DNA of 64,000 bases from Treponemataceae bacterium. Its GTDB lineage: Bacteria > Spirochaetota > Spirochaetia > Treponematales > Rectinemataceae. Shown here one piece after another: positions 1 to 64,000 of the stretch. The position numbers are program-made. The stretch covers positions 480,001-544,000 of the forward strand of contig CAXXHO010000005.1 of the NCBI GenBank assembly GCA_963667725.2. Direction: 5' to 3'. Numbering within the stretch: position 1 is the stretch's first letter; every line of letters starts with the position of its first letter.

Positions 1-3000
1 AATAGCATCTATATAATTTGATAGTATTACTCTTGTACCTAATTTCTTTACTTGCTCTATATAATAATCTCTTTCTTCTTTATCCCAAATCTCTTGTGAA
101 TAAGGTAGTATCTCACTACTTCGAGCTATAGGTACTATTACTATATCAACTTTTGTTTCTTTAACGTCTTTAACAAGGTCTTCTTCAAACAGATCTCCAC
201 AAAGTAAGTAGCTATACTTTTTTGAACCTACAGAAAACTCTACTATTTTTTTGCCTTTACTATAAATATTTTTATCGGCATTTCTACCATGCCACCCATT
301 ACTTATCCTACGATAATGAGCGTTAATGTTTCCTGTGGTATTAATACATAGTACCGAATCATAGATTTTATTTTGATCTCGTTCAAGAAATCCTAAAGAT
401 ACGTAGACTCTACATTTACAAGCTATTTCTTTAATACTATTGATATATGAAGAATCTATTGAAACTGCATATTTGTAATCGTGTTCAGGATTATCATCAG
501 ATATAAATCCAGTTAAGCTTGTTTCTGGGAATATAATGAACTTGGCATTATTTGCAGCAGCTTCTTCTATGTACTGCTTAATAGTTTCAATACTATGAGA
601 AATACAAGTATCAATTCTTGGAACAACGATTGCATATTTCATACAAACATCCGTAGGATGCATCTAACATTTTCGCTTAACCTTTAAGCCCGACCTGAGC
701 GTAAGCGAAGGCTTGGCGCGATTCTTGCACCACTTTACGTTGCCGCTCCTACTTTACTGAATCTCGCAAGAAGCGTGCCAAAGGGCTTATAAGGTTGAAG
801 CGGGTGTTAGAAAGCGTTCATGTTCCTTAATACTTTTACCTGTGCAGCTTAACACTGTTAGAAAATACGCTGCATTTCAGAGAAATACCGAGATGAAATT
901 GTCAACGTTTACTTTAGGTAAATGCTGCAATGAATCTCGGCAATAAAAGATGCAGCGTATTTTCTAACATGAAATCTTACATTCTTTTCTTACATTTACC
1001 CTTTCTTTTTCTTCGAGCCATACGTCTTTCTAACATTTTCGCTTAACCTTTAAATCCGTCCTGAGCGTAGCGAAGGATTGGCGCGCATTTTGCATTGTTG
1101 TTCCTGCAAAATGCGTGTCAACAGGATTTATAAGGTTGAAGCGGGTGTTAGGCTCCTCTTTTTTCGTATTCTTCTCTTCTTATCTCTATTACAATTTCTT
1201 CTTTATCTCTGCTTATTTCTTTAAATCCATAATTCTGTAATGCCCTATATCCATTTTGATTCTTTATATCTATTCTATCTTCCATTATTTCCCCATTAAA
1301 TTCATTGAAGTAATAATGAAGTAGTAAATCTAATGCTTGTCTACCAAATCCATGATTCCTATAATTGCTTTTTATCTTTACATTGAGTCTCGCTTTCTTT
1401 TCTTCTTTATCATAATTATGAAAGCTTATCTCTCCAATACACTGATGAGTATCTTCATGCAATATCAAAAAGTACTTATTTATATCTTTATCAAGTACAA
1501 GCATTTTTTGATACCATTGAGTATATCTTTCCTCTGACAATGGTTGTATGCCTCCTACATCTTCCATTGTCTCGGGATCTTCCCATATTCCTTTTACGAG
1601 TTGCCAATCACCTTTGGTCGGTGCAACTAGTTTTATTACGCTGCCCATAAATGATTTTCTCTATTGTCTAGTGAGCCTAACATTGGCTTAACCTTTAACG
1701 CTCGTTCCCGAGCGAAGCGAGGGATTGGCGTGGTTTGTGCATTGTTGTTCCTGCACAAACCATGACAAAGAACGTTATAAGGTTGAAGCATATGTTAGAA
1801 GCTTTTTTAGGTAACTTTTGTCAATATGAATATTATAATTGATTCTACACTTTCTTTCCAATATAAAACACATACCCATAGTATTCTTTATATTTACTAT
1901 ATAATTCAGCTCCTCGCTTTTCATATTCAACAAATACTTCAGCGGATTTATTACCCTTATACTTTCTTAAAAATATTCCAGCTGCTTTTTTTTCAGCATT
2001 GAAAAAGTTATCAATCCAACAAGATTCAGGCAGACTAAAGGATGCTGTAAATATAAATCCTGCTTTTTGCATTTTAGCTATATTATTTGGAATTGTATCT
2101 ATTTCAGGATATGCGTCATTCCAAAAATCTTCGATCTCTTTTGGCCGCTCGTCTGTGAACCAAGAGGCTTCAGTAACAGCAATATAGCCTCCTTTCTTTA
2201 AGTAATTAATAAAATATTTCATTCCATTTTTAAATCCAATATTGTAAATAGCTCCTTCACACCAGATAAGATCTAATCCACCAATTTTGAAATCAAGTTT
2301 ATCCATTGATCCAATTTCGCCCTTTACTTTATCTTGAAGTTTTAATCGATCAATATTGCTATTTAGTTTCTCAATAAAACCGGAGAATAAATCAATAGCA
2401 GTAATTGTACCCGGGATGTTTTGTGCCAAGACAATTGTCTGACAACCAGTACCACATCCAAGATCGGCTACTTTTAAGGTACTGTTTAAATTATCTATAA
2501 AGCTTAGTGCTTTTAATGTAGCATCATTGCTTCCCGGCCCTTGACGTTCCATGCTTAAGAAAAATTCGCAAATCAATGAAACATCGAAATCATGAATATT
2601 AGGCTCTTCATTTCTCATTTCTTCCTCCAATGCTTCTGCATTATCATGATATTTTTATTTCACACACTATTCTTTTTAGTTATATTAGTTATTTACACAA
2701 ATGATATATTACTATTTTATCTAGCGCCGAAGGCGTCCTTCTAACATTAGCTTGACCCTTAACGCTCGCTCCTGAGCGTAGCGAAGGATTGGCGTGGTTT
2801 GTGCATTGTTGTTCTGCACAAACCATGACAAAGGGCGTTATAGGGTCGAAGCAGGTGTTAGGCATTTTTTTCTTAAGGTTTATTCCTTTATTCTATAATA
2901 TTTAGCGAGTTCTTTGTATTTATTATAATCATAATTACTTTTAATTCTTGCTTTTTCTTTAATATATTCTATATTACTTTTTAACTTTTCTGGAATTTCT

Positions 3001-63000: not shown

Positions 63001-64000
63001 AAAAGGCGTTATAGGGTTGAAGCATTTGTTAGAAATCTTCCCCTTATCTCTTTAGGTCTTAATTATTGTCTTTAATAAATCTCTTATTCTTTCTTAATTT
63101 TCTTAGAATCTTCTCTTTATTCAAAAATATCTTCTTTATTCTCGTATTTAATATAGTCTTCTCTTCTTGGGCTAAAGACTTCTATAGCTACTGAATCCTC
63201 AAGTATTTCAGCTTTATGATTAGCATTTGACAAAATTGTCCAACTATCACCAGGATGTAATACTTTAGATTTCCCATCAATAAAGAGCCTAATGCTACCT
63301 TTTACAAGATATCCAGTTTGTTCATTTATATGCTTATGTTCGGGAAGTGAAGAACCTTTTTGGAGTAAGAATTCAACAAGTAATGAATTTTCTCCATAGC
63401 TAAGAGTCTTAATGCTTATACCATGGATGATTTCTTTGTATCCATTTCTCGATGCAATGCCGAACATATGCTTTTCTCCATCATGTTGATTAATAATTAC
63501 TGCAATGAACTATAAATATTCTTCCTGCGCGGGAGCGTCTTTCTAACATTGGCTTAACCCTTAACGCCTGTTCCCGAGCGAAGCGAGGGATTGGCGTGGT
63601 TTTTGCGTTATCTTCTCGCAAAAATCATGACAAAAGGCGTTATAGGGTTGAAGCTTTTGTTAGAATTTTCACCCCAAAGAGCACTTCTTTCTTCTCTTCT
63701 CTTTAACTTATCTATTTTCTTCTTTTCGTCGTTTTTTATATGCACGTAACATGCGAGAATAAGGGAAAGACGCACCGCTTCTCTTCCCTTTTCGAGCAGC
63801 TGAACAACTAATAATTCTAACATTGGCTTAACCCTTAACGCGTACATTGGCGCGGTTTGTGCTTGCGAGCGAAGCGAGTTGCACAAACCGTGACAATAGC
63901 GTTATAGGGTTGAAGCAGGTGTTGGACGACCCTATTTAGCTGTCTATATACTTCCTAACTACATTCACTTTGCCGATTTTATAATCACTAAATCCTGATT

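Follow-up and report, generated by a model that had tools for sequence, protein, structure and literature searches.

The attC sites of integron cassettes are a model of structure-specific recombination, for which the rules (an R box, an L stem with two extrahelical bases, a central bulge and a terminal loop) have been derived almost wholly from proteobacterial integrons. Canonical sites, such as VCR and attCaadA7 (IntI4-VCR structure, PDB 2a3v), comprise AAC/GTT R''/R' boxes together with L boxes, present a bottom-strand extrahelical G and T six bases apart, a spacing laid down in the T-N6-G rule (PMC3053210), and are served by a cognate IntI with the integron insert, all of which is shared by the array described here. 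As described, the extrahelical bases of canonical sites are found on the L stem only and the site ends at the 7-bp R box, whereas the present genome has a third conserved unpaired T and more duplex beyond R', obtained through two architectures.

Co-oriented chromosomal integrons of the Treponema type (PMC3607928) are also close in kind, since intI is likewise read towards the cassettes and the attC family is shared. Conservation of their attC sites is described as AAC/GTT plus one protruding G only, and the portions of that paper covered here contain no mention of the hairpin, of the T at +9 or of an additional domain on the integrase; the element reported below also occurs in genomes with 63-68-nt Treponema-type sites. 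A third likeness is to DNA mini-hairpins of the types GCGNAGC, GCGNNAGC and CCGAAGG (PMC13037366), which have in common with the element a C-G closing pair and a G..A loop on one strand. Natural mini-hairpins are known from phage and plasmid origins of replication or transcription, while the element belongs to integron cassettes, and the word "integron" is absent from the covered text of that review. Within the literature covered, no paper points to an R-arm element.

Cassette Array and Site Calls

The window, i.e., the whole stretch of 64,000 nt that was analysed, is part of a chromosomal integron cassette array and contains 86 cassette starts. The top strand of the cassettes and most genes correspond to its minus strand, and the attC bottom strand to its plus strand. 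An intact intI, oriented like the cassettes, is located beyond the window (C5, 550880-551806); the integrases of this genome give three TIGR02249 matches above cut-off, without stops, and an attI core is common to the arrays.

Positions are counted from the G of the R' GTT (position 0), so that A at +9 denotes a T on the bottom strand. A new attC profile was combined with the hairpin definition of an earlier note on this DNA (perfect stem of 4-8 bp made of G and C only, loop of 3-5 nt) and applied to 204 closed cassettes; counts in which 3-bp stems were allowed refer to 221 cassette starts, i.e., 232 minus 11 mis-calls on the opposite strand. The canonical L stem with its bottom-strand extrahelical G and T six bases apart is present in 214 of these 221 attC sites. 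The cassette boundaries are correct, because R' is the reverse complement of the R'' of the same cassette in 188 of 206 closed cassettes and seldom matches the upstream attC (22/206). Clustering of 187 closed cassettes resulted in 132 families, 94 of them with the hairpin, which speaks against descent from a few ancestral cassettes, the refuting case named in the earlier note. Comparison with other genomes included 40 spirochaete regions chosen by intI, most of them without a closed cassette, and cassettes were obtained from 11 of these genomes; no closed cassette was delimited in plasmid integrons of classes 1 and 2 or at six loci of HARP genomes from outside the spirochaetes, and these lie outside the counts.

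A Mini-Hairpin Behind R'

Under the strict definition, a hairpin is present within the first 20 nt of 88 of the 204 closed cassettes (43%), in agreement with the four in ten (108/251) claimed before; an earlier, looser site call had given 104/239. As a frequency, this is too low, given that 146 of the 221 starts carry a hairpin when 3-bp stems are included. The fixed offset claimed for the hairpin holds, with 83 of the 88 at position 10 and 145 of the 146 starting exactly 10 nt past the G of the R' GTT, and the two offsets initially distinguished (+5 and +7) merge into one. Its rarity elsewhere is likewise retained, at roughly 140-fold less per 20 nt, while the underlying count is 22 hairpins in the other 146,469 nt of inserts rather than 7 in 183,066 nt; insert GC, previously put at 31%, was measured as 31.8%. 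Shuffling of positions 10-23 in 132 unrelated family representatives yielded 13 hairpins on average and 26 at most, against 92 observed.

On the bottom strand, 138 of the 146 hairpins have a G..A loop with C-G as the closing pair of a G/C stem, GAA (69) prevailing over GGA (10), GCA (6) and GTA (5), and none has such a loop on the sense strand. In related genomes, the bottom-strand loop is G..A in 85 of 113 hairpins, again with none on the top strand, and loops of the same kind occur in side hairpins within the attC sites of the present genome, where 27 were counted for the bottom strand and 0 for the top. The stems are of seven types in this genome and eleven in its relatives, and across these types complementarity and G..A loops are retained. 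According to the published melting data in PMC13037366, the loop counts follow the melting-point order of DNA mini-hairpins, the RNA versions are far weaker, and the stability of the DNA forms is missed by nearest-neighbour models. By ViennaRNA DNA energies, the bottom strand has no advantage (-4.14 vs -4.12 kcal/mol), and the strand argument is built on loop sequence and these melting data. Judged by its sequence, the G..A loop is the signature of DNA mini-hairpins, placed on the strand that IntI recombines.

It is highly improbable that the hairpin acts as an RNA stem-loop at the 5' end of the cassette transcript, affecting stability or translation, or as a GC clamp insulating attC folding, as had been suggested for it. 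While the main ORF begins downstream of the element (median start 64 with hairpin, 35 without) and the sense RNA folds at about -5 kcal/mol, the G..A loops are on the antisense strand only, the sense RNA folds are the weaker ones (-5.1 vs -6.3), Rfam at gathering scores gave no match for the hairpin, no T run follows on either strand, and the third of cassettes without a hairpin still keep the adjacent skipped base discussed below. The predicted folding of attC is unaffected when the hairpin is shuffled or deleted, predicted R-box pairing being 0.993 with the native, shuffled or deleted form (60 cassettes). An intrinsic terminator was also considered and rejected: the sense-strand hairpin is followed by an A-rich tract, and the antisense T tract precedes the hairpin, with no U run after it.

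A Skipped T and Its Two Architectures

A bottom-strand T (A at +9) is found in 212 of 221 cassettes and, among the starts lacking a hairpin, in 69 of 75, compared with an A frequency of 39% further downstream; in the window, where 46 of 86 starts have the hairpin, the base is kept in 84 (Table 1). In cassettes with the hairpin, pairing of +8 with the own 3' end occurs in 0 of 126 cases, the partner of +8 being the base after the stem. This outer pair round the T is G:C in 138 and C:G in 3 of 145 cases, and G:C in 103 and C:G in 7 of 113 in related genomes; +7 and +6 do not covary with the post-stem bases in a way that would extend the stem past this single pair. The avoidance of C at -2 in the same class (0/126) was discarded as evidence, C being scarce throughout those ends.

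In the 61 closed cassettes without a hairpin, positions +7, +8, +10 and +11 pair with the own 3' end in 56, 54, 55 and 53 cases, against 23, 23, 28 and 29 with the ends of other cassettes as a control, and +9 pairs in 3 of 61; G-C, T-A and C-G pairs all occur. Among 39 unrelated hairpin-less families, +8, +10 and +11 are all paired in 28, while 10,000 shuffles gave a mean of 3.9 and a maximum of 12. Contiguous R-arm pairing in the circle breaks off after 8 bp in 123 cases and after 9 bp in 53, extending to 10 bp only once (n = 204), and the L-arm T stands in the matching register in 214 of 221 attC sites. Models of naked DNA give a probability of 0.08 for the outer pair in hairpin cassettes, and of 0.27 and 0.25 for the pairs past the bulge in the hairpin-less class; since these pairs are marginal, the bulged geometry would need protein. 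Mobility proxies (copy number, R'/R'' match) did not differ between the classes, with multi-copy families at 20/93 vs 9/39.

Table 1. R-arm elements and associated sites in the window (window positions).
Feature	Position	Strand	Remarks
Hairpin-class type example	2724..2737	+	Read from the bottom strand: G; G/C stem of 4 bp round a GAA loop; bulged T; C
Putative R-arm extrahelical base, skipped T (+9)	2736	+	
R' box + one base	2738..2745	+	8 nt pairing with own R'' end in excised circle
Crossover	2744/2745	+	Position according to PMC7439510
Adjoining attC	2739..2863	+	R' 2739-2745, R'' 2857-2863; L-arm extrahelical T 2841, G 2848
Hairpin-less type example	1670..1681	+	+7, +8, +10, +11 pair with own 3' end; T 1672 skipped
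Partner end of 1670..1681 cassette	1147..1157	+	R'' 1147-1153; 1154-1157 pair across skipped T in circle
Hairpin with inverted outer pair round bulged T	47731..47744	+	C:G, not G:C; compensatory change
Hairpin, 3-bp CCC/GGG stem, GAA loop	3394..3405	+	Below the 4-bp cut-off of the earlier note
Hairpin with GGGA tetraloop	10736..10748	+	
Hairpin, 6-bp stem, GTCA loop	55029..55047	+	
Other hairpins (span 4113..63539), set 1	4113-4126, 5440-5451, 6243-6255, 7030-7041, 8496-8509, 9167-9178, 10094-10107, 12522-12534, 15200-15216, 15896-15909	+	
Other hairpins, set 2	16968-16981, 19796-19807, 20604-20615, 22813-22826, 23693-23706, 24482-24494, 25429-25440, 27172-27187, 27871-27884, 28654-28667	+	
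Other hairpins, set 3	29490-29502, 30176-30188, 30891-30904, 31522-31534, 32335-32351, 35314-35327, 36019-36032, 38702-38715, 39347-39363, 40157-40170	+	
Other hairpins, set 4	41985-42001, 43813-43824, 44433-44449, 45888-45906, 50026-50042, 51549-51562, 52289-52304, 53041-53054, 54159-54172, 62893-62908, 63527-63539	+	
+9 of 40 starts without called hairpin (span 659..63812), set 1	659, 1025, 1672, 4492, 7404, 7770, 11710, 13496, 14367, 16206, 17668, 18324, 19020, 21845	+	T in 38 of the 40 (sets 1-3)
+9 of starts without called hairpin, set 2	26441, 33221, 33494, 33792, 34561, 36712, 37553, 37850, 41059, 42274, 42955, 46681, 48671	+	
+9 of starts without called hairpin, set 3	50888, 53351, 54444, 55343, 56770, 57554, 57828, 58102, 58796, 60416, 61203, 62165, 63812	+	

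Proposed Function and Alternative Readings

Conservation, register, covariation, strand and lineage range form the observed basis on which we regard the element as probably a lineage-specific extension of the R arm, with a third extrahelical T that helps IntI to engage excised circles. In the excised cassette, the R stem would run for 8 bp from the crossover, followed by one more pair, the unpaired T and then more duplex. In two thirds of the cassettes, a mini-hairpin with a GNA or GNNA loop, abutting the end of the R stem, would be the local source of both the outer pair and the duplex; in the remaining ones, both would be supplied by the 5' end pairing with the own 3' end. The resulting R arm would be the L arm mirrored beyond the box (TT, five bases, one base, T). 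The R-arm integrase subunit most likely requires the duplex and docks the T, from which better capture of the folded circle and better integration at attI would follow; candidate readers of the T in IntI are the known T pocket or an N-terminal HARP-like domain. We infer that the structure forms and is contacted by IntI, and that the effect is a positive one, the latter because the hairpin-less form folds only in the circle and the cassettes that are visible are the integrated ones. The proposal that the recombination site includes a conserved, structured module outside R''-L''-L'-R' is supported and, among the roles envisaged for it in the earlier note, the positioning of IntI is the most likely putative one.

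New in this arrangement are the conserved unpaired T on the cleaved arm and the duplex outside R', for which two interchangeable builds exist. An extra flipped-out T, made by a tiny stable hairpin or by end pairing, suggests that the enzyme may read a folded site beyond the textbook size, and a third conserved unpaired base with two builds would mean that the whole lineage uses a larger site. This would have a bearing on cassette movement between integron classes, on attC detection models and on synthetic site design and, since the two ends match across a fixed bulge even in cassettes that are unrelated, also on how cassettes are made.

The element might be a mere footprint of cassette making with no present function, i.e., a 5' cap copied from a short attC apex or a fold-back copy of the own 3' end, with the T as a by-product, which we consider unlikely. 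The short attC apex, which consists of a T bulge, a GC stem and a triloop GAA (the attC-6 state of Grieb et al., PMC5737091), does resemble the element: the commonest element and the apex of short Lysobacteraceae attC sites are identical in 14 letters and in box distance, a likeness that is also counted in favour of the preferred reading, 241 of 273 sequence matches of the commonest element lie within an attC frame, the L arm of related attC sites reads G[A]C, as in the element, in 104 of 140 cases, and the matched ends of unrelated cassettes must originate somehow at creation. Unlike the apex, however, the element is not within the attC hairpin but beyond it on the R side, as part of the downstream cassette, with no L'/R' after it and with a preceding box that fits the cassette's own R''; moreover, the seven and eleven stem types retain complementarity and G..A loops, the outer pair covaries, and two architectures retain one skipped T. 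Such a footprint can hold as the origin of the element and still leave a function. A truncated or fused attC remnant was rejected, there being no L'' before the apex and no L'/R' after it, a box that fits the own R'', and an A-rich leader that follows.

Protection from SSB or nucleases, in which the mini-hairpin removes the single-stranded overhang at the attC foot, depriving SSB of a start for opening the long hairpin, or provides an SSB-resistant landing spot for IntI, with the T as a mere linker, is quite unlikely. It would be in line with the reports that attC is opened by SSB given an overhang of at least the required 3 nt, that IntI recognises a residual GC stem (PMC5737091) and that mini-hairpins are poorly bound by SSB (PMC13037366), as well as with the strand bias of the side hairpins within attC; it gives no account of the same T being kept and skipped in hairpin-less cassettes, leaves the fixed register and the covarying outer pair unexplained, and would still have the other flank single-stranded.

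A published observation that counts against a helpful R-arm T is that the L-arm T, when bound in cis, disorganises the active site (PMC2727003), an effect that, were the T on the arm being cleaved, would be inhibitory instead of helpful. The R-arm T, whose register mirrors that of the L-arm T, might enter the L-arm T pocket, turn off the cutting subunit and lower excision in a very large array, and the hairpin form does exist in the array regardless of the upstream neighbour. Such a brake appears very unlikely, as the end-pairing form folds in the circle alone, a state in which selection would act against a brake, in-array R arms mostly pair over 3-6 bp, and hairpin cassettes occupy the first place at two of three attI sites.

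Finally, a signal for priming, active while the bottom strand is excised or replicating, would fit the strand and the occurrence of mini-hairpins, including the CCGAAGG type, at the primase sites of phage G4 and RSF1010 (PMC13037366), but with one third of the cassettes lacking the hairpin, and with the register and the skipped T unexplained, it is the most improbable reading of all.

Occurrence in Other Integrons

The hairpin element, reported before from other Rectinemataceae, is found across the order and beyond, not just in the family. All 130 closed cassettes from related genomes have A at +9, as have all 45 from eight genomes chosen by intI alone; outside the lineage, the base is present without excess in 10 of 115 Lysobacteraceae-type, 10 of 38 other gammaproteobacterial and 11 of 41 Vibrio mimicus cassettes, and none of these 115, 38 and 41 cassettes has the hairpin. 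In Vibrio and Lysobacteraceae circles, the R stem is also extended, but without a bulge. The end-pairing class is clear only in the present genome; in related genomes, 14 cassettes are without a hairpin, of which 4 and 5 form the bulged pairs, and many of the 14 are imperfect hairpins. The unpaired T at +9, the second build, the mirror symmetry with the L-arm T and the spread across the order and beyond are absent from the earlier note.

Integrases and Their N-Terminus

Treponematales attC sites might be two-fold symmetric, each arm having an extrahelical T; an N-terminal HARP-like domain of the integrase would then read the extra T together with the junction of duplex and single strand at the foot of the site, and the mini-hairpin serving as a universal cap by which a new cassette becomes a substrate with only 8 matching bases. 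This is a doubtful, tentatively held extension of the preferred reading; if true, it would define a second attC class, explain the extra domain and provide a sequence rule binding on any model of cassette genesis. Eight of 16 integrase members match Pfam PF07443 (HARP; best E 1.1e-5), with the proteins of this genome below the curated cut-off. The modelled N-terminus (pLDDT 79.8) was compared with the fold of the SMARCAL1 HARP domain and the UvsW N-terminus: a match to 4o66 was obtained by sequence (E 0.016) and by Foldseek (rank 3, E 0.093), and MotA, UvsW and XPB align with Z 5.2-6.2 (rmsd ~2, 51-60 aligned), under the caution line of Z 8. An Atlas search named no family, the literature search gave no paper on the HARP fold family, and the whole integrase folded from a single sequence at pLDDT 42.

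A strict link between HARP integrases and the element is ruled out by exceptions both ways. G323 and G305 have the element and no HARP match on their IntI, an additional whole-genome search having had no positive control, and in G323 the element is present from the first cassette onward, beside the IntI without HARP; in G057, the A at +9 is kept at all array starts (7 of 7), with neither hairpin nor HARP. Conversely, two non-spirochaete HARP integrases adjoin few cassette starts, and these are without the bulged form. The residues of the T pocket are partly kept in the integrases of the present genome, as P/H/H in the C7 enzyme, P/Y/H in that of C1, and Y/H without the P in that of C5.

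Array setting and cassette boundaries

The window is part of the C5 cassette array, whose top strand corresponds to the minus strand and whose attC bottom strand corresponds to the + strand. With an attC profile built from 86 sites of the window, cassette arrays were found on contigs C1, C3, C5 and C7 of the source genome (G000). Those on C1, C5 and C7 are each headed by an intact integron integrase co-oriented with its cassettes (see table), which is the arrangement described for Treponema integrons (PMC3607928). The three integrases share an attI core and a HARP-like N-terminus, and all lie in one assembly whose contamination is 6.26%, so that a mixing of sources is possible for this set. 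In all three integrons, an inverted repeat of ~30 nt lies directly upstream of the attI core.

Positions refer to the top strand, with the G of GTT in R' as position 0. Cassette boundaries can be relied on: among 206 closed cassettes, the opening 7 nt match the reverse complement of the same cassette's R'' in 188 and that of the upstream R'' in 22.

Coordinates and loci of integrase genes, a recombinase gene and repeated short cassettes
Feature	Contig or frame	Position or locus	Remark
Integron integrase	G000 C1	34408-35331	intact, co-oriented, outside window
Integron integrase	G000 C5	550880-551806	intact, co-oriented, outside window
Integron integrase	G000 C7	37069-37989	intact, co-oriented, outside window
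Tyrosine recombinase gene	G000 C5	409705-410505 (L312, L313)	within C5 array, strand opposite to cassettes
Short-cassette family, 364-367 bp	window	1034-667, 4501, 7413, 7779	repeated
Short-cassette family, 273-298 bp	window	16215, 33503, 33801, 37859, 42283, 53360, 54453, 55352, 57837, 58111, 63821	repeated
Integrases with ~100-residue extension		L511-L518, L521, L523, L525, L526, L528, L530, L532	

A proposed bulged R arm built in two ways

The G/C-only mini-hairpin reported in the earlier note is borne out: by its definition, 88/204 closed cassettes are positive, 83 of them with a hairpin beginning at position 10, while the remaining 146,469 nt hold 22. When 3-bp stems are admitted, a hairpin is present in 146 of 221 cassette starts (232 minus 11 opposite-strand mis-calls), beginning at position 10 in 145. 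Closed cassettes with matched boxes number 187 and represent 132 unrelated families; since 94 of these carry the hairpin, it is not an effect of duplication. Composition-preserving shuffles gave a mean of 13 and a maximum of 26 hairpins, against 92 observed.

Position 9 is A (bottom-strand T) in 212/221 starts, including 69/75 hairpin-less ones. Of the closed cassettes that lack a hairpin (61), 56, 54, 55 and 53 can pair at positions 7, 8, 10 and 11, respectively, with the four bases immediately preceding their own R'', compared with 23, 23, 28 and 29 when the ends of other cassettes are used; position 9 is skipped, and counted without a gap it would pair in 3/61. Among 39 unrelated hairpin-less families, positions 8, 10 and 11 are all paired in 28 (10,000 shuffles: mean 3.9, maximum 12), G-C, T-A and C-G pairs are all represented, and no alternative bulge position fits. 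In 126 hairpin cassettes, position 7 pairs with the cassette's own end in 121 and position 8 in none; here, the partner of position 8 is the base after the stem, and this outer pair, which spans the skipped base, shows covariation (G:C 138, C:G 3 of 145; in relatives, G:C 103, C:G 7 of 113). Judged from these pairing patterns, the two groups appear as different solutions to the same structure. In the circle form, the unbroken R stem ends at 8 bp in 123/204 and at 9 bp in 53/204 cassettes, reaching 10 bp once.

All 17 cassettes <400 nt in the genome are hairpin-less, and along the C5 main array hairpin and hairpin-less cassettes show mild clustering (58 switches vs 72 expected; 47/5,000 shuffles as low). 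Position -4 before R'' is A in 112/126 cassettes of the hairpin class, above its A-rich neighbouring positions.

Loop sequence and strand

On the bottom strand, 138/146 hairpins have G as the first and A as the last loop base (GAA 69, GGGA 15, GGA 10, GCA 6, GTAA 6; GTCA, GCTA, GTA and GATA 5 each); in related genomes this holds for 85/113 loops, and for none on the top strand. Such loops are those of DNA mini-hairpins; a review (PMC13037366) states that among triloops only GNA forms such hairpins (melting-point order A > G > C > T), with RNA counterparts far less stable and with poor binding by SSB. The ViennaRNA DNA energy is equal for both strands, which counts against the strand argument; nearest-neighbour-type models miss mini-hairpin stability, according to the same review. 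The proposal of an RNA stem-loop stabilising cassette transcripts is at odds with both the strand and the hairpin-less class. Within the variable part of attC, side hairpins have 27 C-GN(N)A-G loops on the bottom strand vs 0 on the top, a bias that inserts lack (11 to 20).

Likeness to the L arm and possible function

Outward from the spacer, the order on the L arm is TT, extrahelical G, five bases, a further single base and then the extrahelical T (214/221 sites), which is the register of the T-N6-G rule (PMC3053210); on the R arm it is TT, five bases, a further single base and then the T. By register, the R-arm T occupies the mirror position of the L-arm T, on the strand equivalent to it. 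In T bulge, stem and GAA apex, the most frequent hairpin element has exactly the letters of the 56-57-nt attC of Arenimonas and relatives, and 241/273 matches sit in attC frame. From these letters and the mirror register, it follows that the cassette start rebuilds, at the R box, the L-box surroundings of a short attC.

R arms in the array mostly pair 3-6 bp. The end-pairing form could fold solely in the circular cassette, so that selection on it would act on the integration substrate, while the hairpin would provide the same shape without end matching beyond 8 bases. As a feature hindering integration would not be kept, we infer that the extended R arm and its T help IntI to bind the circle or to synapse it with attI. 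Models of naked DNA give marginal probabilities for the outer pair (0.08) and for pairing beyond the bulge (~0.26). According to PMC2727003, catalysis is switched off when the L-arm T is bound in cis; a T on the cleaved arm must therefore be read differently or act as a brake. A guard against SSB (PMC5737091 and PMC8946536) is possible, but leaves the T unexplained. Insulation of attC folding, also put forward in the earlier note, found no support, predicted R-box pairing being 0.993 whether the hairpin was native, shuffled or deleted (60 cassettes).

Range across genomes

The exact motif occurs in 14/401 Spirochaetota genomes of several families. Among the matches listed, it stands behind attC or attI in records labelled Treponemataceae, Treponema sp., Alkalispirochaeta and Spirochaetales, behind attC of the same family in short contigs attributed to Bacteroidota, Chloroflexota, Clostridia and archaea (binning errors possible), and also, by chance, within coding sequences of GC-rich genomes. 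In related genomes of the order, closed cassettes have A at position 9 in 130/130 and a hairpin in 113; in eight genomes picked by intI alone, the counts are 45/45 and 41. The end-pairing class is weak outside the source genome (bulged pairs in 4 and 5 of 14 hairpin-less cassettes).

In outgroups, A at 9 was found in 10/115 Lysobacteraceae-type cassettes, 10/38 of Gammaproteobacteria (12 loci), 11/41 of Vibrio mimicus, 1/9 of V. furnissii and 2/5 of Pseudocolwellia, and the hairpin in none of these. Their R stems run on without a bulge, unlike the R arm here; in V. mimicus, positions 7-10 pair with the end in 39, 38, 22 and 24 of 41. Bulge-free end complementarity beyond the 7-nt box was seen in Lysobacteraceae and Vibrio cassettes (L449, L450, L674-L689). 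In G057 (L532), an array with a different attC type has A at +9 in 7/7 starts and no hairpins; the conserved base may therefore reach beyond the order.

This comparative support is strong, and we regard the element as a real, lineage-wide extension of attC. Within the papers reachable, supplements not covered, the literature search returned nothing on an R-arm element; in the accessible parts of PMC4909258, PMC6557892, PMC9668308, PMC7439510 and bioRxiv 10.1101/2020.05.09.085589, core sites are taken to be 7 nt long and the element goes unmentioned.

Integrases

The HARP-like N-terminus of the three integrases comprises ~70 extra residues; HARP domains have been described as modules by which fork-remodelling enzymes bind DNA specifically at junctions (PMC4666394). 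Most integrases of the order among those examined have it. Its link to the element is not strict: in another genome (G323), the element is present from the first cassette on, next to a divergent IntI whose N-terminal domain is a different one, and cassettes neighbouring two non-spirochaete HARP integrases are without the bulged form. The residues of the L-arm T pocket in IntI4 (P232, H240, H241) are fully kept in one of the three integrases and partly in two. Integrases of other Spirochaetota families have a different N-terminal extension of ~100 residues, by eye like a second SAM-like domain.
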